Shown: positions 5,429 to 61,235, numbered from the stretch's first letter. The stretch is DNA of 64,000 nt from Anaerolineae bacterium (GCA_035420085.1 DAOLUH010000022.1:7930-71929), one strand, 5' to 3'. Translations and numbers: made by a program. Notes: generated by a model from the letters alone, not told the origin.

Positions 5429-6532
5429 ATGAAACGGATTGTTCACATCCTTATGGCCGTGGTCCTCATGGTCACATTGGCGGTCAGTGTCGGCGCACGC
5501 ACGCAGAGCAGACCGGCTATAGCCGCTTCCGTCCCGCCAGCCCCCCAGGTCGAGAGCACAGCGACCAACCTGCTCATTAACGGCGACATGGAAATGCTGC
5601 CTTATGAGTGGTTTTACCCCAATCATTATGTTGCCCCGTACTGGAAGCGGATGTGGTATTATTATTCTGTGATCCCTGAATATGACGAGACACGCGGGGT
5701 ACGAGAGAGTTACTACTATGAGGGGGTCAATGCGCAGGTGTACTTCAAATGGGGACCGGCTTATCAGGCTGGCATGTATCAGATCGTGACAGGGCTAACC
5801 CAATGTACACCCTATGAGTTATCTGCCTATGCACGCAATCACTCAGTCATTGGCGCAGTAGCGCACGCGCGCGTCGCCCTTGATCCCGAAGGCACAAAGC
5901 TGACGCCCGATAACGACGGGGGTTTCTTTTACTTTCCACCCTATATAGCCTGGTCTGCCGAGCAGACGCAGCTCTTCGTATGGGAACGGCTGGCCGTGCA
6001 GACCGAACCCCTGGGCGACAAAATGACAGCCATCCTGTATGCAGCGCCGCAACCAGGAAGCAGCCAGGTACACTATTACGACTCGTATTGGGATGCTGCT
6101 GTTCTAACGCCGGTTTCGTTCCCCAACAACCGCCTACCGGCGCCAGGTTCCTGGAATCCATCAGGCTTCATCTACGATGTCCAGACGACGAAAGGCAGTG
6201 GTACGTTGACGGTCAATTGGAAGACCCAGGGGACAGCATCAACGCAAGTGCGATACGAGATCGTGCCCTATCAAGCGCCCATCTCGTCAACAATTTGGAT
6301 CTCACTCACCCATCACGCTTACTTGCCGTTTGTAGCCAAAGGGGTAAATCCGAACAACCTCACAAAGTACACAACGCTGAATACGACCCCGGTGACAGAC
6401 CATAGTGTCGTTATCACGGGTATACAAGCCGGCGATACGGTGTTGCTCGTGCCGTTGTCTCGCCGTCCCATAGATGGCGTCTGCACAACAGAAACTGCCG
6501 CACCAGTGGTTGTGAAGTTCGATATGCCGTGA
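5429..6532 (+). CDS. Secreted hypothetical protein (CBM-like N-domain, Fn3-like C-domain)
   Basis: AAGGAG RBS and a signal peptide (MKRIVHILMAVVLMVTLAVSVGA). NLLINGDMEM is a CBM4/9-style start. TLTVNWKTQGTASTQVRYE is Fn3-like. Stop TGA overlaps the GTG start of the next gene (GTGA, 6529-6532). Confidence 0.6.
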   Translation: MKRIVHILMAVVLMVTLAVSVGARTQSRPAIAASVPPAPQVESTATNLLINGDMEMLPYEWFYPNHYVAPYWKRMWYYYSVIPEYDETRGVRESYYYEGVNAQVYFKWGPAYQAGMYQIVTGLTQCTPYELSAYARNHSVIGAVAHARVALDPEGTKLTPDNDGGFFYFPPYIAWSAEQTQLFVWERLAVQTEPLGDKMTAILYAAPQPGSSQVHYYDSYWDAAVLTPVSFPNNRLPAPGSWNPSGFIYDVQTTKGSGTLTVNWKTQGTASTQVRYEIVPYQAPISSTIWISLTHHAYLPFVAKGVNPNNLTKYTTLNTTPVTDHSVVITGIQAGDTVLLVPLSRRPIDGVCTTETAAPVVVKFDMP

Positions 6533-9090
6533 GCGCCCCAAAAACTCGCCTCGTCACTCTGGGTTTGCTGCTCATTTTTTTCGCGCAGCTCCTTCAGGCG
6601 GCCAGGTCACTCTCAACGACGGTTGACGAGGGATTTCACATCACTAGCGGCTACGAGTATTTGAGGACGGGGAGGGTGCAACTCTTTGACGAGCATCCTC
6701 CCCTGGCAAAGGCACTGTTTGCGTGGCCACTCAAGTTCGTCCCCGACCTGCCCCCACCGGAAGAGACGCCAGGATACACGGAAGGCGACCTCATCACGGT
6801 TGCCCAGGCGACCGTGTTGGCGTACCAACCCATTGATCGGCTGGTGGTTGCGTGCCGAATTCCTGTGGCGCTACTGTGTGTACTCCTCGCCTGTAGTGTC
6901 TATCGGTGGACAGTTTCGATAAGCGGCAAAGCCGGTGCGCTACTGGCTCTGGCGTTTTTCACGTTTGATCCCAACGTCCTTGCCCACGGTAGCCTGGCAA
7001 CCACCGATTTGGGCAGCACAGCTTTCATCTTCTGGACGTTGTTCGCACTCTATATTTATCTGCAAGCGCCAGGCAAAGTACGCTGGTGGCTTGTCGCTGT
7101 GATGCTTGGGCTTGCGCAGCTAACCAAGCTCACCGCAATCATGCTTTTTCCCGTCGGCGGCATTGTCATTGTGCTCTATGCCGTGCTTCACGCGCCCGAT
7201 CATCGAGGGCGCGCTCTGTTGCGCGCGGTGATTTCTTATGCAGGTATGATCGGCATTGCGGCAGTGGTTGTGTGGGCAGGGTATGGCTTTGAGATACGGC
7301 CAATATCCACCATCGCCAACGGAACGCTGCCCTTGCCTGCCGCCAGCCATATCGAACGCTGGGAACGCCTGCGCGCCAATCTTGCGTATGGGCGGGAAAG
7401 CTATCTCCTCGGACAAAACCGAATGTACGGGTGGTGGCAGTATTTTCCCATCGCCTTCCTTATCAAGACCCCACTTCCAACGCTGATTTTGGCAGTTTGG
7501 GCAATTCTGCGTTTCACGTTGAAACGTTGGAACGTTGGAACGTTAAAACGTCTCACGTCTCATGCCTCACGGATCACAAGTCACACTTTATATCAGATTA
7601 TGAATATGGTTTGTCTGCTCCTCTTTCCACTCCTCTACGCCGCTTCCAGCCTGACGAGTACGATCAACATCGGCTATCGCCATCTGCTGCCGATTTTGCC
7701 GTTTCTCTACGTGGGAGTAGGGAGTAGGGAGTATGGAGTACGGAGTAAGAAGTGCAAGTTGCGAGTGACGAGTGACGAGTTAGGAATCAAGAATCAAGAA
7801 TTACCAATCCTCAATCCTCAGTCCCCCCTTACTCCTTACTCCCTACGCCTTACTCCTTACTTCTTACTTCTCGCCTGGCTCGTGGTTGGCACGCTCACAC
7901 TCAGCCCCAACTATCTCACATTTTTCAATGAAATCGCAGGCGGGCCGCAGAACGGTTGGCGTTTTCTGGCGGACTCCAACACGGATTGGGGACAGACGCT
8001 AAAGGCATTAGCCGCGTATCAACAGAAAAATGAGACAGGGCCAGTCCAGTTATCGCTCTTCACCTTTCTTGATCCGGCGACTTACGGGGTGGATTATGTT
8101 CCCATCGCGCCGATGACCGGGGTGGAGGTCATCCTGCCACAGCGTTTCAACCCGAAGCCAGGTCTTTACGCCATCAGTGCGACGACATTAGATGGGGTGC
8201 CGTTAGTCAATCCCGAAATGTACGATTGGTTCCGCTGGAATATACCCGACACACGAATCGCCAACGCACTTCACTACTACCACGTCACCACCGACGAGGT
8301 TGCCATCACCTGGATTGCGCAGTGCCAAACACCGGTCGCTCCGCTGAACGATGCTGCCATTGCCGAGGGGTTTGGCATCACAGCAGTACGGCGCGTGGAT
8401 TTCGACTGTACGAAAAGCTGGATCATCCCCAGCAATAATGCCATAACCGGTAGATACATTCTTCACGGTGCGCTACTGCAGGACACACTCAAATCGCGGT
8501 TGCATTATGCCGCTCCACCTGCTATAGACCCGTTTGTCGCCCGACGCCTCACAGCACTGACCATTGTTTATCGCCAGCGTATGTACCGCACCGAGCCAGC
8601 GTTCGCTATTTACGCACCTGCCGCCGACACTGTCATACCGTCATCCAACGCCTGGATTGCGCGCGCCGATACGCTATCCACAATGCTCACGACACGAGCA
8701 CCCATCGCTCACCCCATCACATTGGATGGCCCGCTGACCTTTTTAGGGGCAGCGGCTTATCAACAGCAAAACGTCCTCGATGTCGAAACATGGTGGATCG
8801 TGACCGATGTGCCGCCAACGCGCCCCCTGTCCATTATGGGGCATTTGCTCAATAAAGCGGGGGAAATCAAAGGCATTGCCGATGGACTGGGTATTCCGGC
8901 ACTTGCCTGGCAAACAGGCGATGTTCTTGTACAACGCCATGTGTTCCCGCTGGCCGCAGGCGAAACACACGCCAGTTACTTACTGCGCACCGGCGTGTAT
9001 TGGGCGGATGATGGAACACGGTGGCGCATCACAACTGACATGGAGGCAGATGCAATCTTTGTCGCAGTGATACCTACAATCACGCCATAA
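6529..9090 (+). CDS. GT39 / ArnT-PMT_2-like membrane glycosyltransferase with C-terminal beta-sandwich module; carries two in-frame repeat-array insertions
   Basis: 853 aa. TTVDEGFHITSGYEYL..FDEHPPLAKALFAWPL (GT-C D-E loop). DSNTDWGQ. Multiple TM helices. Residues encoded by 7516-7586 and 7713-7873 are low complexity. Confidence 0.8.
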   Translation: MSAPKTRLVTLGLLLIFFAQLLQAARSLSTTVDEGFHITSGYEYLRTGRVQLFDEHPPLAKALFAWPLKFVPDLPPPEETPGYTEGDLITVAQATVLAYQPIDRLVVACRIPVALLCVLLACSVYRWTVSISGKAGALLALAFFTFDPNVLAHGSLATTDLGSTAFIFWTLFALYIYLQAPGKVRWWLVAVMLGLAQLTKLTAIMLFPVGGIVIVLYAVLHAPDHRGRALLRAVISYAGMIGIAAVVVWAGYGFEIRPISTIANGTLPLPAASHIERWERLRANLAYGRESYLLGQNRMYGWWQYFPIAFLIKTPLPTLILAVWAILRFTLKRWNVGTLKRLTSHASRITSHTLYQIMNMVCLLLFPLLYAASSLTSTINIGYRHLLPILPFLYVGVGSREYGVRSKKCKLRVTSDELGIKNQELPILNPQSPLTPYSLRLTPYFLLLAWLVVGTLTLSPNYLTFFNEIAGGPQNGWRFLADSNTDWGQTLKALAAYQQKNETGPVQLSLFTFLDPATYGVDYVPIAPMTGVEVILPQRFNPKPGLYAISATTLDGVPLVNPEMYDWFRWNIPDTRIANALHYYHVTTDEVAITWIAQCQTPVAPLNDAAIAEGFGITAVRRVDFDCTKSWIIPSNNAITGRYILHGALLQDTLKSRLHYAAPPAIDPFVARRLTALTIVYRQRMYRTEPAFAIYAPAADTVIPSSNAWIARADTLSTMLTTRAPIAHPITLDGPLTFLGAAAYQQQNVLDVETWWIVTDVPPTRPLSIMGHLLNKAGEIKGIADGLGIPALAWQTGDVLVQRHVFPLAAGETHASYLLRTGVYWADDGTRWRITTDMEADAIFVAVIPTITP
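7516..7586. repeat. Phased tandem array: ACGTTGAA/ACGTTGGA/ACGTTGGA/ACGTTAAA (8-mers), then ACGTCTC x2, ATGCCTC, ACGGATC, ACAAGTC (7-mers); lies inside the GT39 CDS
   Basis: Read directly from the sequence. The same ACGTTGGAACGTT core occurs at 29555 and 47091. Confidence 0.85.
7713..7873. repeat. 23 consecutive phased heptamers in five sub-families (GGGAGTA, CGAGTGA, AGAATCA, TCAATCC, CTCCTTA); the outer blocks are reverse complements; lies inside the GT39 CDS
   Basis: Read directly. GGAGTA units (7713-7747) are the reverse complement of the TACTCC-containing units (7825-7866). Confidence 0.85.
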
Positions 9091-9130: not shown

Positions 9131-10528
9131 ATGGTCAAGTCCAAATCCACGTTTTTAATCACTCTGGTTATTGTGATAGGAATTGGTTCTATGGTGATAA
9201 GTTTGCAGATAGTGCCTGCATTAACAGCCGCTAATACCATCCCTTTGAGAACATTGAATGTAACACCAAGTGATGAGGTTTACGTTCCCGCTGGAGAATT
9301 CCTTATGGGATGCAGCGGAGATACAGCGGGGCCATTAGGCTGCGATACAGATGCCTGCCCCATTCATGCCGTCTTTTTGGATGCTTTCTACATTGACAAA
9401 ACCGAAGTTACCAACGCACAATACACAGAATGTGTGAATGCAGGACAATGTCTCCCACCGCTGTCATTCAGTTCAGGCCCAAGTCGCCCTAGCTATTACA
9501 ACAACACAACATACGCCAACTACCCTGTGCTGCACGTAGATTGGCAGCGCGCCATCACTTATTGCCATTGGGTTGGCAAACGCTTGCCCACAGAAGCGGA
9601 ATGGGAAAAAGCGGCGCGCGGTACCGACCGGCGAGCTTTCGCCTGGGGAAATGAGCCACTGACCTGTGACAGAAGCAACAGCAATACTTATTATTCTAAC
9701 GAACAAGGCGAGTATAGAGAAAAACCTTGTGTCGGTGACACAACGCCCGTAGGAAGCTACCCTAATTACCCCAGCCCCTATGGCGCTCTGGATATGACCG
9801 GCAATGTCAGAGAATGGGTGAGTGATTTTTATAGCAGATATTACTATCGTACTTCGCCCTATTACAATCCTACAGTTGTCGAATACGGCGACAAGGGTGA
9901 ACATCTCGTGCGAGGAGGTTCGTGGAAAGAGATAGATCGTCAGTCAACCACCTGGGTTCGGCTTGACGAGGCCGACATATACGAAACCCAACTTATCGGC
10001 TTCCGCTGCGCCAGGACAGCAGGAGGAGGAGGAACACCTACACCTGCACCTACCGCGACACTCACGCCAACGCCAACACCGTATGCGGCGCGTAGCATTG
10101 GAGCGGAGGGGGGGGCAGTCTGGTTAACATACCCGCAACACCTCACCCTACTGACCGTCCCCGAAGGTTCTCTAAACAACCAAACAACATTTACTCTGAC
10201 CTATAATCAGCCTCGCGAAACGAAAGAGCTTCATTCCAACAATCACACTTTTTCCATTGAGGCGCAACCCCAAACCGGCAGTACGGAACTAACTCAGCAC
10301 TATCTTGAGAATCCGGTGCGTCTTGTTATGGGGTACCATGAGCTTTCAGGCATCATCTCCGGCACCCTTGATCTCTACCGGCTCACTGCTGGCGGCTGGA
10401 CCACAGCGCAAATCACAAAGGTGACGCAGGCCTCAGATTACATCGTCGCCGACATTCAATGGCTAGACATCTACGGTTTACTTGGGGAAACCAATCGCAT
10501 ATACTTGCCGCTGACGTTGCGCAAGTGA
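9131..10528 (+). CDS. Formylglycine-generating-enzyme family protein (SUMF1/FGE-sulfatase domain) with PT linker and C-terminal extension
   Basis: AAGGAG RBS and an N-terminal TM segment. FYIDKTEVTNAQY, LPTEAEWEKAARG, DMTGNVREWV and RGGSW motifs. AT-richer than its neighbours. Confidence 0.85.
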   Translation: MVKSKSTFLITLVIVIGIGSMVISLQIVPALTAANTIPLRTLNVTPSDEVYVPAGEFLMGCSGDTAGPLGCDTDACPIHAVFLDAFYIDKTEVTNAQYTECVNAGQCLPPLSFSSGPSRPSYYNNTTYANYPVLHVDWQRAITYCHWVGKRLPTEAEWEKAARGTDRRAFAWGNEPLTCDRSNSNTYYSNEQGEYREKPCVGDTTPVGSYPNYPSPYGALDMTGNVREWVSDFYSRYYYRTSPYYNPTVVEYGDKGEHLVRGGSWKEIDRQSTTWVRLDEADIYETQLIGFRCARTAGGGGTPTPAPTATLTPTPTPYAARSIGAEGGAVWLTYPQHLTLLTVPEGSLNNQTTFTLTYNQPRETKELHSNNHTFSIEAQPQTGSTELTQHYLENPVRLVMGYHELSGIISGTLDLYRLTAGGWTTAQITKVTQASDYIVADIQWLDIYGLLGETNRIYLPLTLRK

Positions 10529-10546: not shown

Positions 10547-13018
10547 TCACCGTAGCGGCAACAGCGGAAAACGCTGCGGCGGGTTGCGCGTCCCCGGTGT
10601 GACGATGTTGGGCGAATCGGCGCGCACTTCGTCGCCGGACTGTGATGCTGGCGGGTCGGCAATCCAATCTGCCAGGGCGTCGTTGCTTCCCATTCCGACA
10701 AACAACGCGCCGTCATCTGCGCCAAGTTTGCGGAACGGCCGGTCAAACGTCACGCCATCCGCGAGGATACCGAACGTGTAGGGGGTGACGGCGTAACCTT
10801 CGGCCACAAAATCAACGCCGATGTCATCGTCGAAGGCGGCGGTAGGACCGGGCGCCAACAACACGAGGTTATCGTCGCCGGTTCCCAGGCCGAAACCCGG
10901 GTCCGTCGTCACGTCGAGCGCGCCATTGCCCACGTAGAACAGCAGCCGTTTGTCGCGTGGGTCCAGATCATCTTTGGGGAAGTCATGGGCGTTGCGGTCG
11001 CTCTCCGTCGCCAGGATGAGGATAATCGTGTTGCGGGGCACAGCCGCCAGCGCATCAAGCGCCGGGAAGATGAGCGAACCTTCCGCCGCGCCGATCTTCG
11101 TGTTGTTGTCGGTGAGACGCCAGCCGCGCAGGTCAACCCCGTCGCGCTGCACGAGCAGTTCGATCCAATCGCCATCAATGGGCCGGTTGCCCACGCTGGC
11201 GTAGGGCGTGCCATTGTCGTTGATCCAGAATTCGTTGATGACAACGTCATCAGGGCGCACGTTGCCTTCGTTCGTCCTCTCTGGGGGGGCAAAATGCGCG
11301 ACAAGGCGACAGGGTCCAGCCACGGTTAGGGTGATGTTGGTGGAGGTGGACGCTGCGCCATCCATCGTGAGCATCCATCCAGTAAAGACAAATTCGCGCG
11401 CGGGGACTGCCGTGAATTGTACAGGGACGCCGGATAGAATGTCGCCTTCCCATACGCCAGGGCCCGGCAGGCGCGCACCTTCGATATACACGTACCCGGC
11501 CTCTGGCGGCTGCACTTCAAGGCTTACCGAGGCCACTTCGCCTATCGCCCATGCATTGGCCAGATGCTTCAAAACCCACGCCGGCCGGTTGACGGTGAAA
11601 TCGGTCAGGAAAGCATCCACGTTATCCGCCCACAAAAACGGCGTAGGCCAGCGCGCCGCCTCATACCGGATGTCATCATGCAGCGTTGCAACAAGCGCCT
11701 GCGCCCGGCTCTGTAGCGCCGGCGCAGCGAGTGTGGTGTTGAGCAGCATCGCCAACCGCCGGGCCAATCGCGCGCGATAACCGGGGTTTTTGAGAAGTGC
11801 GCGCAGCAGAATGGTGAAATCTGCGCGCGGTTCCTGGAACAGCGGCGCGTCGGCCCGCGAGGCAAAAGATTGGCTCCCCCCGGCGTAGAGGAAAAACCAC
11901 GGTCCGCCCGGCGGATGTGCAGCGTACATCTCGGAGGCCGGGAAGCCAAAGTAAAGCTGCAACACTGCCCAATCGGTCAAATTGTCCAGATCAACCTGGT
12001 CGGCGACGTAGGAAAAGTTGTCGGGTTCGGCCAGACTGTGCGCCGCAATCCAATCCACGAGTGCATCCCACCCTGCGTCGTCGCCTTCACGCTGTCGCCC
12101 ATTCTGCACGAGATCAGCGCCGGCGATGCCCAAATTCATATCTAGGAAAAAGCGGTCAATCCGTTCGCTCAGGCGATAAAGGCCCCAGCTTTCTCCGTTG
12201 AGGAAGAGATGCACAAACCGTCCCTGGGCGGCGGGCAATCCCATAGCGGTCGCCACGTCCACCACCAATTGATCGCGGAAGAACGTCCAACGTCCGGCGC
12301 GATCGCCGGTTTGCAGCAACAGTCGCTTGTAAGTCTGTGCGGTGTCAGGCTGTTGAGGATGCGCGGCAAAAAGCTGATATTCCAACCGCGCGGCATTGTA
12401 CTCGCTGCGGAAGTACAAGCGGAGTGATTGTTTGGCCGCGCCGGCAGGATCCGCGCCGTGGATGCGCAGACCAGCGGACAGCGCAAAACCCGGCGTCCCG
12501 TCAGGTGGGATGTAGGTCACGGCAACCGGACGTTCCCAATCAGCGCCGCGCCCCCACGTGTTGGCGAAAATGCCCTTTTCGGCGTCCCATAAAGCTGCGG
12601 GATCAGCGATGAGCGACACGATGGGGAGTTTACTCGGTACGCCCATAATGTACGTCGCGTTCACGACAGGGCCAGGGACGCCGTCCACAATCTCAACGGC
12701 GCGGATGACGACCACACGCGGCGAGACCCCGTCGAGGCGCAGGGGATGTTCGTACAGCAGGCCAATCTCCGGCGTGGGTAACGTCCCATCAATCGTGTAC
12801 ACGATCTGCCCGCGCGGATGCGTCGCCCGCAACGTCACCCGGATGCTGCGCTGGTAGACGCCTGGCGCCGGCGCAAAAGTCGGCGCGTTGATCCCCGACA
12901 CAGCGGAGAGATTGTCCGTCACATGCCCGGCCAACGCTTCACTCAGCGCGAGCAGCATCACCGCCGCTGCCAACAGCGCGGATAAGGGCAACCAGCGACG
13001 AATATGTGCGCTTATCAT
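10547..13018 (-). CDS. Exported CotH kinase-family protein with chitobiase/Fn3-like N-domain and C-terminal lamin-tail domain (CotH-3)
   Basis: Signal peptide MISAHIRRWLPLSALLAAAVMLLALSEALA. IVYTIDGTLPT. CotH core FLNGESWGLYRLSERID. LTD motif VVINEFWINDNG..DGDWIELLV..LRGWRLTD. Confidence 0.8.
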   Translation of the reverse strand: MISAHIRRWLPLSALLAAAVMLLALSEALAGHVTDNLSAVSGINAPTFAPAPGVYQRSIRVTLRATHPRGQIVYTIDGTLPTPEIGLLYEHPLRLDGVSPRVVVIRAVEIVDGVPGPVVNATYIMGVPSKLPIVSLIADPAALWDAEKGIFANTWGRGADWERPVAVTYIPPDGTPGFALSAGLRIHGADPAGAAKQSLRLYFRSEYNAARLEYQLFAAHPQQPDTAQTYKRLLLQTGDRAGRWTFFRDQLVVDVATAMGLPAAQGRFVHLFLNGESWGLYRLSERIDRFFLDMNLGIAGADLVQNGRQREGDDAGWDALVDWIAAHSLAEPDNFSYVADQVDLDNLTDWAVLQLYFGFPASEMYAAHPPGGPWFFLYAGGSQSFASRADAPLFQEPRADFTILLRALLKNPGYRARLARRLAMLLNTTLAAPALQSRAQALVATLHDDIRYEAARWPTPFLWADNVDAFLTDFTVNRPAWVLKHLANAWAIGEVASVSLEVQPPEAGYVYIEGARLPGPGVWEGDILSGVPVQFTAVPAREFVFTGWMLTMDGAASTSTNITLTVAGPCRLVAHFAPPERTNEGNVRPDDVVINEFWINDNGTPYASVGNRPIDGDWIELLVQRDGVDLRGWRLTDNNTKIGAAEGSLIFPALDALAAVPRNTIILILATESDRNAHDFPKDDLDPRDKRLLFYVGNGALDVTTDPGFGLGTGDDNLVLLAPGPTAAFDDDIGVDFVAEGYAVTPYTFGILADGVTFDRPFRKLGADDGALFVGMGSNDALADWIADPPASQSGDEVRADSPNIVTPGTRNPPQRFPLLPLR

Positions 13019-13021
13019 ACC

Positions 13022-14275
13022 CTACCGCACTTTTACTACGCGAAGCTCGATGCGTCCGGCAGGCAGAACGACGCCCCCAGCATCCGTCACGACAAGCCGA
13101 ACACCTGTCTCAGGGTCGTACATCCCCACGCAAAGGGTGTAATCGCCGCGCGGCATGTTACGATCCAGCGCCAGTATGTGCTCATCGCGGATGTATTGGC
13201 CCGGCTGCCACTGCGACGTCGGATAGGTCCATCCCAACGGCACACTGTCATCCTGCGCGGCGACAGCGCCATTGGCATCCAGCACATGGACAAAGACTTT
13301 GTAGTCGCCGGAGACAGCGGCGCGCGCATGCCAGTACAACGTCACCCGCAAGTGCTCGCCCGGCGCAATCCGTTCCGCTGCTTCGTAGCCGATCAGCGCC
13401 ACGGCGTCGCCAAGCGACCACGTACCGGCAGTTTCCGGCAGCGGCGGCGCATCCGTCACTGCGGGCAGATAGTGAAGCGTCGCCAGCGCCAGGTTTGCAG
13501 CGCCGACCGGCGCGCCATTACGCCGGTAGATCGTCAACGTCAGGGTGTAATCCCCGTAGGGAAGAGCGTCAGGAACGGCTAAGGTGTAATGCGAGGTCAC
13601 GGCATCTCCATCGCGGACCAAACCCGGCAGCAGGCCATCGTCCATGCTCTGCTCCGCCTGGGCATACACGCGACTTCCCTCAGCGCCGCGCAAGCGCAGC
13701 ACAAGCTTTTCTGCGTCGGATAGCGCGAAGAGGTCGCCAGACCAGGCCAGCGTCACGTACAGCGGCTCGCCTGGTTCCAGGCGCTGTCGGTTGACGCGCA
13801 CTGCGCGCAGTTCAAAGCCTGTTCCGCCAAGAGACTGTTGCACGGGTTGCCACACACCCTGATCGAATGGTGAAGGGGTATAGCCATAAATGCGGAGCGG
13901 CGTCAAAGTGCTGCCAGGAACCAGCAACGCATCAAGAAAACGATAGTGCGTCTGAAACCACGGCTGCGCCTGCGCACCATCCCATGCCACGCCCGGCCAG
14001 GCGATGACGTAATCAGGTTCAGCGCGTAACGTCGCCACCAGCGCCTCCGCAGCGCCGCCCTCCGGCACAGCAAGCGTAGAACGGTCGCCCAGGCAGCGCG
14101 CCAACGTTGCGGGCGCCGCCACCCGCTCCGCTGGCAACGCATGCGCCTCCAACCACGCCGCAAGCGCAGTGCATGGCGCATCATATTGTGTTTTACAGCC
14201 AGCAAGCAGAGATAGTGCAACGTAAAACGTAAAACGTAAAACGCGACTCGCCACTCGCCACTCGCCGCTCACCAT
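13022..14275 (-). CDS. Lipoprotein with two copies of the beta-sandwich module found at GT39 C-termini (alternative start 14293)
   Basis: Lipobox LLAG|C. Repeated ..LYW..GDY.VFVHVLD..W.PGQ..GDYTL.VGMYD motifs. The N-terminal region is encoded by a heptamer array. Confidence 0.6.
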   Translation of the reverse strand: MVSGEWRVASRVLRFTFYVALSLLAGCKTQYDAPCTALAAWLEAHALPAERVAAPATLARCLGDRSTLAVPEGGAAEALVATLRAEPDYVIAWPGVAWDGAQAQPWFQTHYRFLDALLVPGSTLTPLRIYGYTPSPFDQGVWQPVQQSLGGTGFELRAVRVNRQRLEPGEPLYVTLAWSGDLFALSDAEKLVLRLRGAEGSRVYAQAEQSMDDGLLPGLVRDGDAVTSHYTLAVPDALPYGDYTLTLTIYRRNGAPVGAANLALATLHYLPAVTDAPPLPETAGTWSLGDAVALIGYEAAERIAPGEHLRVTLYWHARAAVSGDYKVFVHVLDANGAVAAQDDSVPLGWTYPTSQWQPGQYIRDEHILALDRNMPRGDYTLCVGMYDPETGVRLVVTDAGGVVLPAGRIELRVVKVR

Positions 14276-14281
14276 TCGCCC
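14219..14281. repeat. Nine phased heptamers (AACGTAA x3, AACGCGA, CTCGCCA x2, CTCGCCG, CTCACCA, TTCGCCC)
   Basis: Read directly. The AACGTAA unit is identical to the array at 24723-24743. Confidence 0.85.
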
Positions 14282-16872
14282 TACTTCTTCCATTTCTCGT
14301 ACAGCGCATCCACATCTACGTCAACGCCCCAGATACGCACCCCATCCAGGTCAATCCAACTGCCGGTTTGCACCAGCGTTTGCTGGTCAGCGGATAGATC
14401 CGCAAATGTGACGCGCTCCGCCGTGATGGAGGCCGGGCCGTAGGAAGGCTTTTTGATGTAGGCGGCCAATCCGGCAATGCGCGCGCCCTGAATCGTGACA
14501 TCGGCGATGGAGACGTGCGACAGATCCTTGCTGACCACGCCAAAATCCGCGTTCTGGATGAAGACACGCTCGGCGGTGAGGCGGCTCATCTCGCCTACAG
14601 ACATGCCCTTATCGCCCAGATTAATCATCCGCGCGTCACGCACCTGAATATCCGCGCCGCTCACGTCAATCGCATCTGCACCGATGTCGTGAAAGGCGCA
14701 ACGCTCGATCACACCCTGCCCAAAGTCCACATCAATGCCGTCGGAACGGGTATTGCCGAACTCCGAATCCACAAAGGCGAAGCGCGCGCGGATGACATTG
14801 AGGCCATCTTCAGCCTGTGTGCGCAGGATGCGGCTGTGTTCGAGGCGGATGGGGCTGCGGTAGAACGTGATCCCGCCGGTCAGCATCCAGCCCTGGCGGT
14901 TAATGGCGTCGGCGGCCTCGACGGTGACGTAGCGCCACAGTGAAGTCTGCCCGGCGTCCAGGACGACGATACCGCGCCACTTCTCGCCTTGTGAACGCAA
15001 TACGACCGGCGCGCTGGCGGCGCCCTCAAAGATCAACGGGCCAGTCGCCAGCAGAAAGTTGTCGTCGCCAAAGTTGAGCGTTGTCCTCGGCGCGAGTCGC
15101 AAGCCATACCCCTCTGGCAGCAGCAAGTCGCCGACCACATCCCATTCGCCGGGCGGGATGGTCAACATTTGTGCGTCGGCGGTCTCGCGCAGATACGAGT
15201 GCTGCGCTACAGCTTCCGCCAGCGTCGGCAGTGTGGGACGCGCCGTGGCCGTCAGCGGCGCAGGATAGGCCAACAGGATCGGCTGCGTGAGGGTTTGCGT
15301 CAATCCCCACACGCGAGTTGTCAGGGTTGCCGCAGCGCTGGTGATGACGCCAGAGATCGAGAAGGTCACATACGGCAGAGTGGATGCATCCTCAGGCAGC
15401 GCCGCCAGAACCGGCGGCGCGACAGACGCCAGGCCGGTGATCGTTTGCGCCGCGCCGAGAGACAGCCGCCGATCACCGACGTTAATCCCCACTAGCTCAA
15501 CCGGCAAATCCATCAAATTGCCGACCACAAGCGCATCTCCCCGCGCTTCAGGGACATAAGCATAGACCATCTGCAGAGGTGTTAACCGCTGGCGGTTCAA
15601 ATCTTGACGACCTCGCAGCCAATCCCACGGCGGCGTCAACACATCCGCGCCGAATTCCGGCGTTAAAGCCGCCGCATAAAGCGCAAACTGCTCGCCCAAC
15701 TCGGCTTCCAACGCTTCCACATATCCCGGCTGGCTCATCCGCCACAGCTCCCGCGCGTAAGCCGACTGCAAGTACGGGTCATCGTAAAATGCCGACGCGG
15801 GCAAACCCACCTGGGCGAAGTCCAGTTCGGGCGAGAACGGATCAGAATCGAAGGAAATTGGCTCCAGTCGCCCGGTCACGGGGCTGTAGTAATAGCGCAG
15901 ATTGTGCCAAATCAAGCCGTGCGGCGCGCTCCATAAATCCGACAGCGCCAGGAATTTCGCCATCGTCTCCATATCGAAGACCTCCGGCGCGGTCAAATTG
16001 CCATCCCATAACCCGCGCAGCAGGCCCACAGCGGCAGTGCGCTGCGCCTGCAACGCTGGAGACGCGCGCACCCGCCCCGCGTTGAATTCGTCCACAATGT
16101 AAAAACGCTCGATGCCCGGCGGAATCACTTGATCGTCGTAGAAAGCGCGCGCCCGCCAGACCAGGTCTTCGGCATAGCGCACAATCACCCCTTCACGACG
16201 TTGCTGCGATTCCAGCAATTCTTTGGCAAACCCTTCTTCCACTGCGTAAATGCCCTTGTCTTCGCCGTTAAGCACCACGCGAATGAACTGATAGCCTACA
16301 CTCAAGACACCCTCGCGGCGCATCGCGCGGTGAAATAGCCACTCATTCAGATATGTGCGCATTGAGGGATCATGAATTGAGAAAACCTGCATCCCTTCAA
16401 GATAGCCCTCGCCGCGCAACTCTATGCGGAACGACCACTTGTCACTGACCAGGTGATCGGCCCAGTCACCCTTGAGGCGCACCCTGGCGGAGAGCGGCGC
16501 GCCGCGCCAATGCAGTGTCGCCGGCACAAAGTCGGCATCATCCGCCAACAAAATCCACAACGCCAACGCCTCCTGGCGTTTAGCTTCAAGCTGCGCGAAA
16601 TCAGCGGGGGCGATATCTATATAAAGCGTCTCCAACGTATCGCCCAGTTCAGGCACAGTTGGCGTGGGTGTTGGAGGTGGTGCGGACGTAGGCGCGAGCG
16701 GCGCCGGCGACTGAAGCGGGATGGCGGCCTGGGGCGTCGAAGAGGGAGAGGTCAACAGCGGCATGGCGACCAGCGCCGTCGCCAACCCGGCGGCAAACGC
16801 GAGCAGCAACAGCGTCAGCAGCACGGGCGGGCGCAAGCGGGGGTAAACTTTGCCGCGCTCATCCACTTTCAT
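14281..16872 (-). CDS. Membrane-anchored CotH kinase-family protein with C-terminal parallel beta-helix (CotH-2)
   Basis: Start chosen at MKVDERGKVY (ATG c16870-16872), which forms an ATGA overlap with the upstream stop. TM anchor LLTLLLLAFAAGLATALVA and a PT linker. CotH core VVLNGEDKGIYAVEEGF. PbH1-like repeats near the C-terminus. Confidence 0.8.
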   Translation of the reverse strand: MKVDERGKVYPRLRPPVLLTLLLLAFAAGLATALVAMPLLTSPSSTPQAAIPLQSPAPLAPTSAPPPTPTPTVPELGDTLETLYIDIAPADFAQLEAKRQEALALWILLADDADFVPATLHWRGAPLSARVRLKGDWADHLVSDKWSFRIELRGEGYLEGMQVFSIHDPSMRTYLNEWLFHRAMRREGVLSVGYQFIRVVLNGEDKGIYAVEEGFAKELLESQQRREGVIVRYAEDLVWRARAFYDDQVIPPGIERFYIVDEFNAGRVRASPALQAQRTAAVGLLRGLWDGNLTAPEVFDMETMAKFLALSDLWSAPHGLIWHNLRYYYSPVTGRLEPISFDSDPFSPELDFAQVGLPASAFYDDPYLQSAYARELWRMSQPGYVEALEAELGEQFALYAAALTPEFGADVLTPPWDWLRGRQDLNRQRLTPLQMVYAYVPEARGDALVVGNLMDLPVELVGINVGDRRLSLGAAQTITGLASVAPPVLAALPEDASTLPYVTFSISGVITSAAATLTTRVWGLTQTLTQPILLAYPAPLTATARPTLPTLAEAVAQHSYLRETADAQMLTIPPGEWDVVGDLLLPEGYGLRLAPRTTLNFGDDNFLLATGPLIFEGAASAPVVLRSQGEKWRGIVVLDAGQTSLWRYVTVEAADAINRQGWMLTGGITFYRSPIRLEHSRILRTQAEDGLNVIRARFAFVDSEFGNTRSDGIDVDFGQGVIERCAFHDIGADAIDVSGADIQVRDARMINLGDKGMSVGEMSRLTAERVFIQNADFGVVSKDLSHVSIADVTIQGARIAGLAAYIKKPSYGPASITAERVTFADLSADQQTLVQTGSWIDLDGVRIWGVDVDVDALYEKWKK

Positions 16873-17597
16873 AGCAGCATCCCCTGCACATACTTCGAGA
16901 AACGATCTACCGGCGCAGGGAAGTGCGCCAGCGCGTCGGACAACCGCCGGTAATCCACGTCCGTGGGAAACGCTTTCAACTCCACCACTAGCGGGGCTTG
17001 TGCATACGCCGGGCGCATTAGATTTGGGCAAGCTGCCGCGCGTTGATCGTAAGTGCACAGCGCAGTGTCAACCGTCAGGCGCAGCGCGTCATCCGGCGTG
17101 GCGTAATAGGCGCGCCAATAATGATTGATGAGCGTTGGGATGGCGAATACATCCAGCCATTGCCGCGCTTCCGGCAGCACGGCAGCCCGCACATCACACA
17201 CCAACGTATGCCACGTCGTCTCCGCGAGATCAAAAACCGCGGCGGCGGGACTCATCGCCTTCCACCCCACCATGCCCTGCTTGTGTTTCCGTTCGAGGTT
17301 AGCCGCCGTGATCCGCGCGGTATCTGTCCCATACCACCGCAGCCGCAGCTTGTCCCGCTCGCCGACGCCGCTGAGATTGGCGTTGAGACCCGCATAGCGC
17401 GCCGTGTCGAAGTAGACGTTGTTCACCTGGCGCGGCGGATAGGTTACGCGCCACTGCGCCGGATGAAGTCGCACCCAACTCTCCACATCCGCCAGCCAGC
17501 GCGCGGGTAGTGGAATTTTGATTTCGTAGCGGGGCGAGGTGTAAGCCAGTTGTGAGCCAGGGGTTGAGGATTGTTGGTAACTGGGCAAGTGACTCAT
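16869..17597 (-). CDS. VTC-domain (triphosphate-tunnel, polyphosphate-polymerase-like) protein; the ORF track start at 17681 lies in an octamer array
   Basis: RYEIKIPL, VNNVYFDT, RDKLRLRWYG and LERKHKQG match the bacterial VTC/CYTH-like pattern. No signal peptide. Start taken at MSHLPSYQQ (c17595-17597). Confidence 0.7.
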   Translation of the reverse strand: MSHLPSYQQSSTPGSQLAYTSPRYEIKIPLPARWLADVESWVRLHPAQWRVTYPPRQVNNVYFDTARYAGLNANLSGVGERDKLRLRWYGTDTARITAANLERKHKQGMVGWKAMSPAAAVFDLAETTWHTLVCDVRAAVLPEARQWLDVFAIPTLINHYWRAYYATPDDALRLTVDTALCTYDQRAAACPNLMRPAYAQAPLVVELKAFPTDVDYRRLSDALAHFPAPVDRFSKYVQGMLL

Positions 17598-17676
17598 TCG
17601 CTGACTCGCAGATTCGCTGATTCGCTCACTCGCTGATTCGCTCATTCGCTGACTCGCTGATTCGCTCATTCGCTCC
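17593..17676. repeat. Ten tandem octamers CTSAYTCG (CTCATTCG / CTGATTCG / CTGACTCG) spanning the CotH-1 stop and the VTC 5' region
   Basis: Read directly. GATTCGCT/CATTCGCT units recur at 45419-45446. Confidence 0.85.
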
Positions 17677-19213
17677 CCCACTCCACCGGAACGACGATGC
17701 GCGTATCGAGGCCCCAGATGCGGGTGACGAGGGTCACCGCTTCCGGCGTCCCCGGCGCGACAGCGCGCAATGCAGTCAACGGCACGCGCACAACGACGGG
17801 CTGCGCCAATTCGGTCGTCTGCGCCGGCAAGGCAATACCCTCAGCAGCGCCGCGTAGATAAGCGCGCTCCGCCTCCGTCACCCACGCGGCGTCGAGCGGC
17901 AATTCGGCGCGATCTCCGATCGCCAGTCCGAGCACTTCTACGGGAAAAGGCATAACGTTGGTGAGCGTAAGCTGCCACCCGTCCTCGACTTCCACAAGGG
18001 CGGCGCTAATCGTCCGCGACGGCGCGACCAACGCCCGCATCCGCGCCTGATGTTCGAGCAGTTCATCCAGACGCGCGCCGGCAATTGCTTCGTCCTCGCG
18101 CCATGCTTCGCTATCGCGCACCGCCGCTAAAAACTCCGGCTGGCTATACGCCGCCAGCGCCTGGACATACGCGCTTTGTAGCGCCGGGTGATTGGTGAAC
18201 GCGGAGGGCAGCGGCAGCGCAGCGCCAGGCAATGGGGCGGTTCCAAGCGGCGTGAAGCGCCGCGTCGTCGGATTGTAGAGCAAATACAGCGACCGCCAAT
18301 CCAGCGCGAAGTCGCCGCGCCAAAGCATCGTCAGCGCCATAAAGTCGGCCAGAGGTTGCGGCTCGAAGGCGACGGATGGCGCATACGTCCCCTGCTCCAC
18401 TCCGCGCAGGATGCGCGTTACGTCCGCGCGCAGCGCCGCGAGCGCCGGATCGCGTGCATTGCCAGTCGCGTTGGCAACGACGATCCGGGCATAAGCAAAG
18501 CTGTCATACGACACGACCGGTTGAGTCTCAAGATACGCGCGCCGGTCGAAATAAACCAGGGCGTGGTCGGGGAACGCCGCCAGCGCGCTGAGGGGCGTTT
18601 CTTCCATCACATACAGGCCCCAGTTCGCGCCATTGACCGTGAGCCGCACAACCTGGGAGGCCGTTGTCGGGAGGCCGCGCGCGCGCAGCGCCGCCCGGTA
18701 AGACTGGCTGAGCAACGTGCGCTGCCACGGCAAGGCGTCGTTCACGGGCCACAACGTCGCCTGGCGCATGTCATACAGCGTCTTCCCATCGCGGAGAGTC
18801 ACGACGAAAGGCCAACGGTCGCCCGTCAGCGCCGCCGCCTCGATCTCCGGCAGCGACAGATCGGTATCCACGGTTTTGTTGTCGAGGGTCAACGTTGCGG
18901 GGACAACCTCGCCATCTTCCGCCAGGTACGCGCCAAATTCCAACGCGCGCGCCCGGAGAGCCGTCAACTGCTGGAAGTTGGCAAGTTTGAGGTCAAGGTA
19001 CAACGCAGGGAAATCGGCGCGCGCTGTCCACGCTGCAAGCGTACCGCGCGGGTCGCGCCAGAAGGCCGCCGCCGATGTTCCAAGTCGCCGAAGCCATCCA
19101 CCGTTTCCCGCCAGCCAGCCCACCCCCAAAACCAGGAGCAACGCCAGCGTCCACAGCCAACGTTCGGCGTGCAAAGCGGCGCGCCCCTGCTGCCGCAACT
19201 TTGTGATGCGCAC
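17666..19213 (-). CDS. Membrane-anchored CotH kinase-family protein (CotH-1)
   Basis: TM anchor WLWTLALLLVLGVGWLAG. CotH core LTVNGANWGLYVMEE. Its start abuts the DUF4956 stop (19214/19213). Confidence 0.75.
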   Translation of the reverse strand: MRITKLRQQGRAALHAERWLWTLALLLVLGVGWLAGNGGWLRRLGTSAAAFWRDPRGTLAAWTARADFPALYLDLKLANFQQLTALRARALEFGAYLAEDGEVVPATLTLDNKTVDTDLSLPEIEAAALTGDRWPFVVTLRDGKTLYDMRQATLWPVNDALPWQRTLLSQSYRAALRARGLPTTASQVVRLTVNGANWGLYVMEETPLSALAAFPDHALVYFDRRAYLETQPVVSYDSFAYARIVVANATGNARDPALAALRADVTRILRGVEQGTYAPSVAFEPQPLADFMALTMLWRGDFALDWRSLYLLYNPTTRRFTPLGTAPLPGAALPLPSAFTNHPALQSAYVQALAAYSQPEFLAAVRDSEAWREDEAIAGARLDELLEHQARMRALVAPSRTISAALVEVEDGWQLTLTNVMPFPVEVLGLAIGDRAELPLDAAWVTEAERAYLRGAAEGIALPAQTTELAQPVVVRVPLTALRAVAPGTPEAVTLVTRIWGLDTRIVVPVEWGSE

Positions 19214-19879
19214 TCAGCCTCCCAATACTTGTTCCGGCTGCAAGAAGCTGATTTCGGTGACAGGGAACCGCGCCTTGAGCGCATCCACGAGACCGTTGAG
19301 CGTGTGGGGATCGCCACAATCAATGAAGTATGTCAACTGCAAAGCGCCATCGCGGCTATCCAGGCGGCGAAAATCCACCGCCTCCACGTGTTCCAGCAAA
19401 CAGGCGTTGACCTGCTCGAACAACGATGGGCCGGTCTCTTCAACAAAGACATTCAGGTAGAGGTTACTGTCACGGCGGCGACGGTTCAGCAACAGCCGAA
19501 TGGACATATACCCCAACAGCAACGCCACGCCGATAAACGTCGGCCAACGCTGCTCGGCGCCCATTCCCAGGCCAATCGCCAGGGCGATGAACAAGAACAG
19601 CAGCTCTTCCTGCTCCTTGACGGCGGTGCGAAAGCGCACGATGGACAGCGCGCCGACCATCCCCAACGACAGCGCCAACGATGACTTGATAATCGTGATC
19701 ACCAGCGTTGTCGTGAGCGTCAACACAGGCAGCAGATAGGCGAATTTGCGCCGGTTGGCAAGCGATTGCCCATAGTGTTCATAGTACCAGGCGACGCACA
19801 GACTCAAAACCAGTCCTAAAACCATGTTGAGCGCCACCGATGCAACCGACAGTACAGGGGGTGCAATCCAATCTCCCAT
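19214..19879 (-). CDS. DUF4956-family small polytopic membrane protein
   Basis: 221 aa, 3-4 TM helices. GALSIVRFRTAVKEQEELLFLFIALAIGLGMG matches my memory of the DUF4956 signature. Confidence 0.7.
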   Translation of the reverse strand: MGDWIAPPVLSVASVALNMVLGLVLSLCVAWYYEHYGQSLANRRKFAYLLPVLTLTTTLVITIIKSSLALSLGMVGALSIVRFRTAVKEQEELLFLFIALAIGLGMGAEQRWPTFIGVALLLGYMSIRLLLNRRRRDSNLYLNVFVEETGPSLFEQVNACLLEHVEAVDFRRLDSRDGALQLTYFIDCGDPHTLNGLVDALKARFPVTEISFLQPEQVLGG

Positions 19880-19923: not shown

Positions 19924-20445
19924 TTAGAAGCGCAATTGTAATCCAGCCTGCTCCAATTGCAACAGCGCCGCTTTGCGATCTACGCCCCCCGCGTAACCGG
20001 TGAGCGTACCGTTCCGCCCCACCACCCGGTGACAAGGGACGATAATCGCTACCGGGTTCGCGCCGTTCGCCTGCCCCACTGCCTGGAACGCGCGCGGGTG
20101 TTCGACTTCCATCGCAATCTCGCCGTAGGTCAGGGTGGCGCCATAGGGGATGGTCAGCAGTTCTGCCCACACGGCGCGCTGGAAGGGCGTACCGCGCAGG
20201 TCGAGGGGCACGGCGAATTCGCGTAAGCGGCGGTCAAAGTAATCCGCCAGTTGCGCGACGGCGGCTTCCAACAGCGGGTTGCTCCCTGGCTCCGGCGCGG
20301 CAATGCCGTAACGCGCCATACGGCGCACTTCCGCCGCGCTCGGCTGCTCGCCAAACCCCAAACCGCAGACGCCGGCTGCGGTGGCGCATATCCACAGCGG
20401 GCCGAGTGGACTCGACGTTAGCACATAGTCACAATGTTCCATCAT
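19924..20445 (-). CDS. ogt: Methylated-DNA--protein-cysteine methyltransferase
   Basis: Active-site IVPCHRVV. 173 aa. Confidence 0.9.
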   Translation of the reverse strand: MMEHCDYVLTSSPLGPLWICATAAGVCGLGFGEQPSAAEVRRMARYGIAAPEPGSNPLLEAAVAQLADYFDRRLREFAVPLDLRGTPFQRAVWAELLTIPYGATLTYGEIAMEVEHPRAFQAVGQANGANPVAIIVPCHRVVGRNGTLTGYAGGVDRKAALLQLEQAGLQLRF

Positions 20446-26498: not shown

Positions 26499-26500
26499 GC

Positions 26501-26577
26501 CACAGAGAGCACAGAGTTCGCAGAGTTTTTTTCTCTGCGCTCTCTGTGTACCCGGTGGCTATTTTGAGAGGAGGCGT
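26501..26577 (+). repeat. CACAGAGnn / CTCTGTG 9-mer hairpin (26501-26548) followed by a conserved SD-bearing leader GGTGGCTATTTTGAGAGGAGGCGT
   Basis: Starts 2 nt after the cca stop and ends at the ATG at 26578. A near-identical cassette lies at 31306-31390 and a partial copy at 31224-31262. Confidence 0.8.
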
Positions 26578-28125: not shown

Positions 28126-28135
28126 AGGAAGTTTT

Positions 28136-29545: not shown

Positions 29546-29546
29546 G

Positions 29547-29622
29547 ACGTTTGAACGTTGGAACGTTCAAACGTGTTAACGTTGAAACATTCCAACACTG
29601 GCGTTTGGCGTTTGACGTTTGA
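29547..29622. repeat. Phased array ACGTTTGA/ACGTTGGA/ACGTTCAA/ACGTGTTA/ACGTTGAA/ACATTCCA (8-mers), then ACACTGG/CGTTTGG/CGTTTGA/CGTTTGA (7-mers)
   Basis: Read directly. Begins 2 nt after the stop at 29543-29545. Confidence 0.85.
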
Positions 29623-29640
29623 CATAAGCCGTTGTATAAA
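29612..29640 (+). promoter_or_regulatory. Candidate promoter TTGACG, 17 nt, TATAAA. The -35 lies inside the heptamer array and the predicted TSS is at or next to the ATG at 29648 (leaderless).
   Basis: -35 at 29612-29617 and -10 at 29635-29640. No SD between the -10 and the ATG. Confidence 0.4.
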
Positions 29641-29647
29641 ACACGGC

Positions 29648-50168: not shown

Positions 50169-50172
50169 GATT

Positions 50173-57429: not shown

Positions 57430-57457
57430 AAGAGGGATTATAACCGATTTTTCACGC

Positions 57458-57482
57458 CCTGGCGAAGGAAACCTTCGCCAGG
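57458..57482 (-). terminator. 11-bp hairpin CCTGGCGAAGG-AAA-CCTTCGCCAGG between the MBL gene and murJ (variant of the CTTCGCAAGG family)
   Basis: Read directly. Confidence 0.45.
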
Positions 57483-57497
57483 ATCGCGTCAAGGGTC

Positions 57498-61187: not shown

Positions 61188-61235
61188 AACCTTGCGAAGG
61201 TGTGCGAACAAGTTCGTCTAAACCTTCGCAAGGTT
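61188..61235. repeat. Hairpin AACCTTGCGAAGGT - 19-nt loop - AACCTTCGCAAGGTT between convergent genes. The right arm encodes the last five codons of the minus-strand gene and is directly followed on that strand by its stop.
   Basis: Read directly. Same core as 48011-48042. Confidence 0.7.

Follow-up and report, generated by a model that had tools for sequence, protein, structure and literature searches.

Gene organization of the operon

We analyzed a 64-kb stretch of DNA (referred to as the window) from an uncultured Anaerolineae bacterium (Chloroflexota), which contains an operon of six tightly packed genes on the minus strand. The operon encodes a protein with a VTC domain of the polyphosphate (polyP) polymerase type, a DUF4956 membrane protein, three CotH-like proteins and a lipoprotein. 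The best genome match was a metagenome-assembled genome whose VTC protein is 89% identical to that of the window. Listed in the direction of transcription, the genes are the following:

19214-19879, minus strand: DUF4956 membrane protein, 221 amino acids, Pfam PF16316
17666-19213, minus strand: CotH-1, 515 amino acids, short "h1" class, membrane-anchored, predicted to be catalytically degenerate
16869-17597, minus strand: VTC-domain protein, 242 amino acids, Pfam PF09359, cytoplasmic
14281-16872, minus strand: CotH-2, 863 amino acids, with transmembrane (TM) anchor, Pro/Thr linker, His-type CotH-like domain, beta-sandwich and right-handed beta-helix
13022-14275, minus strand: lipoprotein, 417 amino acids, with LLAGC lipobox, beta-sandwich and domains resembling carbohydrate-binding modules (CBM-like)
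10547-13018, minus strand: CotH-3, 823 amino acids, secreted, with CHB_HEX_C_1/Fn3_assoc, CotH, InlB-B-repeat and lamin-tail-domain-like C-terminal domains

These genes had been proposed in a preliminary description of the same DNA, and all six open reading frames (ORFs) were found at the positions given there. Direct reading of the junctions bore out the close packing that it had reported: the TGA stop codon of the DUF4956 gene is immediately followed by the GTG start codon of CotH-1, the VTC and CotH-2 genes overlap in an ATGA, and CotH-3 is preceded by a gap of 3 nt. A gap of 5 nt lies upstream of the lipoprotein gene, and the only sizeable gap of the operon, 68 nt between CotH-1 and the VTC gene, is occupied by an 8-nt tandem repeat (see below). 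A Shine-Dalgarno sequence (AGGAG) is present upstream of the DUF4956 ATG, and GGGAGG is located just upstream of the GTG of CotH-1. The same start codons were chosen by the gene callers on four public contigs encoding an identical VTC protein (242 amino acids for the VTC protein, 863 for CotH-2 and 417 for the lipoprotein). Longer ORFs starting with GTG at 17681 (VTC) and with GTG at 17058 (CotH-2) were dropped, as the public gene calls and the homolog alignments begin at the ATG codons of the preliminary description.

Hydropathy analysis revealed a single N-terminal hydrophobic segment in each of the three CotH-like proteins (residues 20-41 in CotH-1), several such segments in the DUF4956 protein and none in the VTC protein, for which the maximum Kyte-Doolittle value (KD19) was 0.91. 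This agrees with the earlier assignment of a TM anchor or signal peptide to all three CotH-like proteins and of neither to the VTC protein. The LLAGC lipobox behind the lipoprotein call was read in the sequence. A scan of the six operon proteins against NCBIfam gave no meaningful match.

The VTC-domain protein

The assignment of the VTC domain proved sound, with a score of 76.8 bits for PF09359 compared to a cutoff of 23 (E 2.4e-21), and the profile of the family matched yeast Vtc2 and Vtc4 in the PDB (E 1.4e-4 to 2.9e-4). According to a cryo-EM study, polyP synthesis by Vtc4 requires K200, R264, R266, K281, Y359, R361, S457, K458 and the Mn-binding E426, and K458 is the sole key residue in which Vtc4 differs from the inactive Vtc2 and Vtc3, where Ile or Leu is found. 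In a HMMER alignment, R85/R87, K104, Y160/R162 and S234/K235 of the window protein corresponded to R264/R266, K281, Y359/R361 and S457/K458 of Vtc4, while K27 and E206 were equated with K200 and E426 because of the spacing of the motifs R-x3-K and E-x-K. All nine equivalents, including that of K458, were invariant in 79-81 of 81 sequences.

The window protein thus has the catalytic residues of the tunnel domain in common with Vtc4, and in both cases the catalytic domain is soluble and has a membrane protein as its genetic partner. Whereas eukaryotic VTC proteins contain an SPX domain and a DUF202 transmembrane domain, neither of these, nor any further Pfam domain or hydrophobic segment, was found within the 242 amino acids of the window protein. 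Its residue pattern makes it a candidate for a Vtc4-like triphosphate-tunnel polyP polymerase.

The DUF4956 membrane protein

The protein encoded by the first gene matched PF16316 with 53.6 bits (cutoff 30.6, E 2.8e-14), as had been proposed. Its close homologs are all annotated with PF16316, and some of them are named YhiD by JGI. An AlphaFold2 model of low confidence (predicted local distance difference test score, pLDDT, 58.6) showed five helices followed by a beta-alpha-beta-beta-alpha-beta domain, from which we predict five TM helices and a cytoplasmic ACT-like domain. This architecture agrees with the description of SIR_1592 of Streptococcus intermedius. The C-terminal domain, the sole interpretable part of the model, was matched by Foldseek to ACT domains and, lower down in the list, to the C-terminal domain of MgtC (2LQJ). 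Seven basic residues (R43, K65, R82, R84, K88, R171 and R172) were invariant in 65 sequences and, by the positive-inside rule, would be located on the cytoplasmic side of the membrane.

The membrane partner of the VTC protein showed no detectable likeness to Vtc1. In hhalign, the comparison of DUF4956 with Vtc1 gave a probability of 0.25%, and that with MgtC gave no signal; both are weak negatives. No Pfam match to MgtC was obtained for the DUF4956 protein, and no VTC chain was present among its top 50 fold matches.

Conservation of the gene cluster

A scan covering a single genome for each species returned 385 proteins related to the VTC protein, and 80 loci were retained. Most of these belong to Anaerolineae; phyla were assigned by contig labels, with a few loci from Planctomycetota, Armatimonadota or Proteobacteria. 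Profiles were made from the window proteins and iterated on the ORFs of the 80 loci. A DUF4956 gene was present in 66 and a CotH-like gene in 75 of the 80 loci. Where at least 3.5 kb of sequence was available upstream of the VTC gene (56 loci), DUF4956 was located upstream, within 4.5 kb, in 50 cases, and 42 of the 56 loci also had a CotH-like gene. DUF4956 is therefore the tightest partner of VTC. Because of these counts, we reject chance adjacency, and the co-occurrence of the three families in several phyla, which the preliminary description had left to be surveyed, far exceeds chance.

The full order DUF4956, h1, VTC, h2, lipoprotein, H3 (h1, h2 and H3 designating the families of CotH-1, CotH-2 and CotH-3) was found in about 35 related loci. 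The minimal unit consists of DUF4956 and one membrane-anchored CotH-like gene, followed by VTC, and on an Armatimonadia contig this triad occurs alone, surrounded by unrelated genes. Beside DUF4956 and VTC, the h-type gene for a membrane-anchored protein was retained whether its product was catalytically intact or not. A tblastn search with the VTC protein in a plasmid collection found nothing.

A function quite different from polyP synthesis was considered as well. The VTC protein could be a triphosphate or polyP hydrolase acting together with an MgtC/YhiD-like DUF4956 protein in phosphate or cation homeostasis, with the CotH-like proteins as co-regulated adhesins or carbohydrate binders. It is established that tunnel enzymes include hydrolases with the same basic tunnel; the YhiD names and the MgtC domain among the fold matches, as well as a gene for an alkaline phosphatase elsewhere in the window, also point in this direction. 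However, the equivalent of Lys458 is invariant, no signal resulted when the sequences of DUF4956 and MgtC were compared, and shared regulation alone would hardly account for so tight an operon linkage with exported enzymes in several phyla. We consider a hydrolase function of this kind very unlikely.

Family and fold of the CotH-like proteins

The three CotH-like proteins match the Pfam family CotH (PF08757, threshold 23.8 bits) to very different degrees. CotH-3 scored 84.1 bits (E 1.7e-23) and contains in addition CHB_HEX_C_1, Fn3_assoc and Flg_new_2 (InlB B-repeat) domains. A lamin-tail domain, which had also been proposed, was not detected by Pfam in the window protein, and an ortholog gave only a sub-threshold match (E 6.4e-6, 26.9 bits vs 34.3).

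CotH-2 remained below the Pfam thresholds, with 20.6 bits for CotH and 23.1 bits for Beta_helix, but its h2 orthologs carry PF08757 (29.9-35.6 bits) together with PF13229 and are named "CotH kinase family protein" by NCBI. The best PDB match of the AlphaFold2 model of CotH-2 (pLDDT 84.3) was CotH of Bacillus cereus (5JD9), with a Foldseek E-value of 1.3e-12 and a target TM-score of 0.64. For the C-terminal part, Foldseek returned a glucanase of glycoside hydrolase family 87 (GH87), the epimerase AlgE4, alginate and pectate lyases and tailspikes. The right-handed beta-helix in the model, along with PF13229 in the orthologs, agrees with the parallel beta-helix that had been assigned to CotH-2.

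CotH-1 had no significant Pfam match (12.5 bits for CotH). It is a paralog of CotH-2, with 30% identity over about 470 amino acids (E 3e-35), and distant CotH-1 orthologs (L053, L079) scored just over the CotH threshold, with about 25 bits. Since PDB searches with the single sequences of CotH-2 and CotH-3 found nothing, family profiles were needed, and that of the CotH-3 family matched 5JD9 with an E-value of 1.5e-12. An hhalign comparison of the h2 and H3 families aligned the N-lobe only (probability 86%); the active sites were therefore mapped by the alignments of the profiles to 5JD9.

Active sites of the CotH-like proteins

CotH of Bacillus subtilis is inactivated by the exchanges D228Q or D251A (PMC7821199). 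By spacing, these two residues correspond to D224 and D247 in B. cereus CotH, which flank Asn229. The residues found at the Asp/Asn/Asp positions were:

CotH-2 family (h2): His318/Asn324/Asp342, aligned to D224/N229/D247 of B. cereus CotH
CotH-1: F/S/A
CotH-3: gap/E/G, with a 3-residue deletion at the catalytic Asp and WDxD replaced by YAGG
CotH-3 relatives in other loci: canonical DWPHHN...WDxD

CotH-2 has thus kept the Asn and the metal-binding Asp, and its catalytic Asp is replaced by His. Canonical CotH-3 relatives, which occur in other loci, retain all three residues and reach 160-165 bits. Of the preliminary description, which had seen three paralogous CotH kinases in the operon, the family membership stands on the strength of Pfam, Foldseek and paralogy, whereas the claim of three kinases does not, as CotH-1 and CotH-3 lack the catalytic residues and CotH-2 has the His.

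The kinase-like domain of CotH-2 was searched against 1.84 billion cluster representatives (50% identity), which yielded 4,058 relatives, 1,844 of them at E ≤ 1e-30. Conservation was evaluated in an alignment of the top 150 relatives and the window protein. Among these 151 sequences, His318 was conserved in 149, Asn324 in 144 and Asp342 in 145; Lys134 was present in 150, Lys145 in 135, and Glu212 and Glu213 in 148-150. Judged by these sequences, there is a large "His-type" branch of the CotH fold, which has a His-Asn-Asp pattern and is fused to a beta-helix of the polysaccharide type.

His-type copies occurred in 44 of the loci and canonical Asp-type copies in 17, and the two types were found together in none. 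Exactly one catalytically plausible CotH was encoded in 58 loci, two in 3 loci and none in 13, mostly on truncated contigs. This distribution suggests as a rule that a locus usually has one active CotH copy. In the operon of the window, CotH-2 appears to be the only catalytically plausible CotH, with CotH-1 and CotH-3 being putatively degenerate. Two Anaerolineales loci (L038, L039) comprise DUF4956, h1, VTC, the lipoprotein gene and H3 and have no h2; both of their remaining CotH copies are degenerate.

In comparison to CotH of Bacillus (5JD9, 5JDA), CotH-2, judged by its model, and CotH-3, judged by its family profile, share the same atypical kinase fold. Bacillus CotH is a spore-coat kinase, whereas the proteins of the window are exported, have multiple domains and show no link to spores. 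The catalytic Asp of the Bacillus protein is a His in CotH-2, and the equivalents of D228 and D251 are both gone in CotH-1 and CotH-3.

The lipoprotein and the flanking genes

All Pfam matches of the lipoprotein were sub-threshold and comprised DUF4832 (E 0.002, 18.5 bits vs 29.2), RbmA-like FnIII and NPCBM_assoc. The DUF4832 match is labelled "faint" in the precomputed annotation, and it is the C-terminal part of the protein that is weakly DUF4832-like. A glycoside-hydrolase domain was not found in the lipoprotein. Its position between h2 and H3 is conserved in about 30 loci. The iterated lipoprotein profile was left out of the co-occurrence counts, as it collected 98 ORFs, among them many unrelated ones with a beta-sandwich, such as the C-terminal parts of GT-C proteins. 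Two genes on the plus strand lie next to the operon:

9131-10528, plus strand: membrane-anchored protein with FGE-sulfatase domain (PF03781, E 2.3e-53)
6529-9090, plus strand: PMT_2 (GT-C) glycosyltransferase (PF13231, E 1.1e-9)

Homologs of the FGE-sulfatase protein adjoin the cassette in 15 loci, in varying position and orientation, and homologs of the PMT_2 GT-C protein are present in 22 of the 80 loci. The C-terminal domain of the lipoprotein has a weak likeness to the C terminus of the neighbouring PMT_2 protein. An Anaerolineales locus with a single CotH gene (L074, 5565-11669) contains, in this order, genes for an FGE-sulfatase protein (directly upstream of DUF4956), DUF4956, a His-type CotH and VTC, followed by a weak match to a calcineurin-like phosphoesterase (E 1.9e-4), which could be a polyP- or phosphoester-processing partner.

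Genes for envelope glycans are unusually dense in the window (1997-4168, 6529-9090, 54123-55757, 55870-57501 and 61218-63998) and encode a YfhO protein, two PMT/PMT_2 GT-C glycosyltransferases, a MurJ-like flippase and a Wzy_C protein of 926 amino acids. This density fits a glycoconjugate-rich envelope as the surroundings of the cassette.

Comparison with known gene clusters

The combination of CotH, VTC and DUF4956 genes, for which the preliminary description knew of no assigned function, is already known, because it has been described in three publications (PMC7112168, PMC12345266, PMC2879425). In Streptococci and Clostridia, cotH, a polyP polymerase gene, DUF4956 and DUF4832 form a conserved accessory group contiguous with pelDEA(DA)FG, and a variant of this set occurs in Bifidobacteria (Whitfield et al., 2020; PMC7112168). 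In S. intermedius, deletion of either the DUF4956 gene SIR_1592 or the CotH gene SIR_1594 lowered Pel formation and aggregation (mBio, 2025; PMC12345266). The same study noted a possible role in phosphate metabolism and reported that the three-gene synteny was not found outside Pel loci. In addition, VTC, membrane-protein and CotH genes are listed in NELoc-2 of Clostridium perfringens (Lepp et al., 2010; PMC2879425).

The Pel accessory set of S. intermedius (SIR_1591-1594, with SIR_1593 as the VTC gene) and the cassette of the window have the same core: in both, a VTC-domain "polyP polymerase" is accompanied by a secreted CotH and by a DUF4956 protein that combines TM helices with an ACT domain (ACT-like, by prediction, in the window). 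As in the Pel set, the CotH, VTC and DUF4956 genes of the window are contiguous. The Pel set also includes a fourth exported protein with a DUF4832-type beta-sandwich, to which the lipoprotein of the window may correspond, and genetic data tie the genes of the Pel set to an extracellular polysaccharide. There are marked differences as well. Whereas the Pel accessory set adjoins pel genes, the cassette of the window lacks them and resides in a member of the Chloroflexota; a scan of about 45 ORFs spread over the window revealed no Pel-type families, and neither did the flanks of the loci L065 and L074. The Pel set has one CotH, but the window three CotH-like genes. Two of these are degenerate, and the third, which is the candidate for activity, is of the His type and carries a beta-helix, unlike in the Pel set. 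The lipoprotein of the window, a weak DUF4832 match, is without the glycoside-hydrolase barrel of the Pel-associated protein. NELoc-2 resembles the window in that each of its VTC-domain genes has a neighbouring gene for a small membrane protein, and these pairs precede genes for a CotH protein and a glycosyltransferase. It differs in being a Firmicute pathogenicity locus with a duplicated VTC/membrane-protein pair around a resolvase gene, and its membrane protein is annotated as "tubulin/FtsZ".

The module is thus not bound to Pel. It is widespread, in Firmicutes and Actinobacteria according to the literature and in Chloroflexota, Planctomycetota and Armatimonadota, by contig label, in our survey, and in one pathogen it has already been tied to a biofilm phenotype. 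A Pel-independent cassette, the large His-type branch of CotH and the rule of one active copy go beyond the published accounts cited here.

Whitfield et al. proposed that Pel synthesis is regulated via protein phosphorylation (PMC7112168). In line with this proposal, the CotH-like proteins might, like the one of Bacillus spores, be ATP-dependent protein kinases, here acting on surface or sheath proteins, with VTC and DUF4956 serving as a regulatory pair that senses phosphate or energy. The sole biochemically characterised CotH is indeed a protein Ser/Thr kinase, and ACT-like domains such as that of DUF4956 are typical of small-molecule sensing. On the other hand, all CotH-like proteins of the operon are exported to a place where ATP is scarce, no genes for Ser/Lys-rich repeat substrates of the CotB/CotG kind are present in the operon, and the catalytic candidate is fused to a beta-helix of the polysaccharide type. 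A VTC protein with a purely regulatory role would, moreover, not need all the catalytic residues of its tunnel to be invariant. We regard such a protein kinase function as unlikely.

Proposed function of the operon

The reading we favour, with a confidence somewhat short of even, is that the operon forms an envelope-modification module in which VTC synthesizes polyP, DUF4956 transfers it and an outward-facing CotH-like enzyme acts on a glycan. The conserved core would comprise the cytoplasmic VTC tunnel enzyme, the DUF4956 membrane protein and an outward-facing, membrane-anchored CotH-like protein. VTC, as its conserved residues suggest, would polymerise the phosphate of ATP at the inner face of the membrane. 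DUF4956, whose role we infer from synteny only, might dock VTC and pass its product to the outer face or present it there. On that side of the membrane, the only competent CotH-like enzyme, in the window CotH-2, would move phosphate or polyphosphate onto an extracellular glycan or glycoconjugate. Action on an extracellular glycan is proposed because the enzyme is fused to a beta-helix, has CBM-like partners and is encoded near GT-C and FGE genes, and because of the link to Pel in Gram-positive bacteria. For a His at the position of the catalytic base, phosphoinositide 3-kinases with their DRH motif offer a possible parallel; the hydroxyl on which they act is sugar-like. The degenerate CotH-1 and CotH-3 and the CBM-like lipoprotein might serve as non-catalytic scaffolds or substrate binders. 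The supply of polyP to exported CotH proteins, which the preliminary description had suggested, remains a plausible hypothesis. A more specific version, in which VTC and DUF4956 deliver polyP to the outside, the His-type CotH (poly)phosphorylates an envelope polysaccharide and the degenerate CotH copies are obligatory pseudoenzyme partners, is conceivable but doubtful.

Under this version, the cassette would represent a bacterial way of energising chemistry outside the cytoplasmic membrane, and it bears on the source of the phosphoryl donor of exported bacterial kinase-fold proteins. The analysis provides handles in the form of the minimal three-gene unit, the CotH copy that is the candidate enzyme in each locus and key residues, which are K235, R85 and R87 in VTC and H318, N324 and D342 in CotH-2.

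Several points weigh against an envelope-modification module of this kind. Similar tunnel residues are found in triphosphatases and cyclases, which are triphosphate-tunnel enzymes as well, and the literature searched contained no report of polyP synthesis by a bacterial VTC-domain protein, nor of the biochemical characterisation of one. The bacterial synthase/translocase that the preliminary description considered for VTC and DUF4956 would be one by analogy to the eukaryotic complex; homology does not support it, as DUF4956 shows no likeness to the membrane domain of Vtc1. A sensory or regulatory role would suit the ACT-like domain predicted for DUF4956 just as well as that of a translocase. 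The replacement of the catalytic Asp by His could mean a wholly different chemistry. L038 and L039 seem to break the rule of one active copy, and an active copy may be located elsewhere in their genomes. The sole characterised CotH is an ATP-dependent protein Ser/Thr kinase and not a glycan- or polyP-dependent enzyme (PMC7821199). Finally, a few loci (L075, L078) contain DUF4956 and VTC but no CotH gene within 10 kb.

These latter loci are of relevance for another explanation, according to which polyP itself is exported as an anionic component of a matrix or sheath, where it cross-links a cationic polysaccharide or binds metals, and the CotH-like proteins mainly bind, anchor or trim it instead of taking phosphoryl groups from it. 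In agreement with this, the pair of DUF4956 and VTC is tighter than the link to CotH and occurs without it, and most CotH copies are degenerate yet conserved. Pel, being cationic, requires an anionic partner, and an exported polyP also fits the Pel link. Against it stands the finding that nearly every complete locus encodes one plausible CotH, in which Lys, Glu, His/Asp, Asn and Asp residues are strongly conserved. From this conserved copy we argue for an enzymatic step outside the cell, as assumed for the envelope-modification module, and an export of polyP as structural material alone seems improbable to us.

Repeats, promoter and further features of the window

Upstream of the operon and within it, the following sequence elements were found:

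19935-19962, minus strand: weakly supported promoter-like site (TTGCAA-16-TACAAT), preceding the start codon of DUF4956 by about 56 nt
17593-17675, no strand assigned: 8-nt tandem repeat GCGAATSA (coding strand), about 10 copies, between CotH-1 and VTC, Tandem Repeats Finder (TRF) score 138

The promoter consensus scan yielded 6 sites compared to 2.5 expected. The GCGAATSA array includes the stop codon of CotH-1. The same repeat also occurs in related operons (L007 at 9870-9893 and 13316-13379, L006 at 7148-7179, L009 at 13340-13371 and L010 at 13347-13378), there at another junction than in the window, between h2 and the lipoprotein gene. It could be a regulatory or processing element at the RNA level. 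Two further, adjoining 7-nt tandem repeats are located at 14219-14280 at the 5′ end of the lipoprotein gene, with the TRF plus-strand units AACGTAA (3.6 copies) and CGCCACT (5.6 copies), and code for residues just before the lipobox.

The products of three consecutive plus-strand genes at 26356-31222 are exported proteins that contain Pro/Thr-rich linkers. Pfam domains, namely DUF348, G5 and PD40/DPPIV beta-propeller repeats, are present in the third alone, and the other two are without a match. An island of low GC content at 48609-52962 (0.48-0.53 vs about 0.61) carries a McrBC-like restriction pair, one protein of which has DUF2357 and PD-(D/E)XK domains and the other EVE and AAA_5 domains. 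This island is probably a horizontally acquired defence module.

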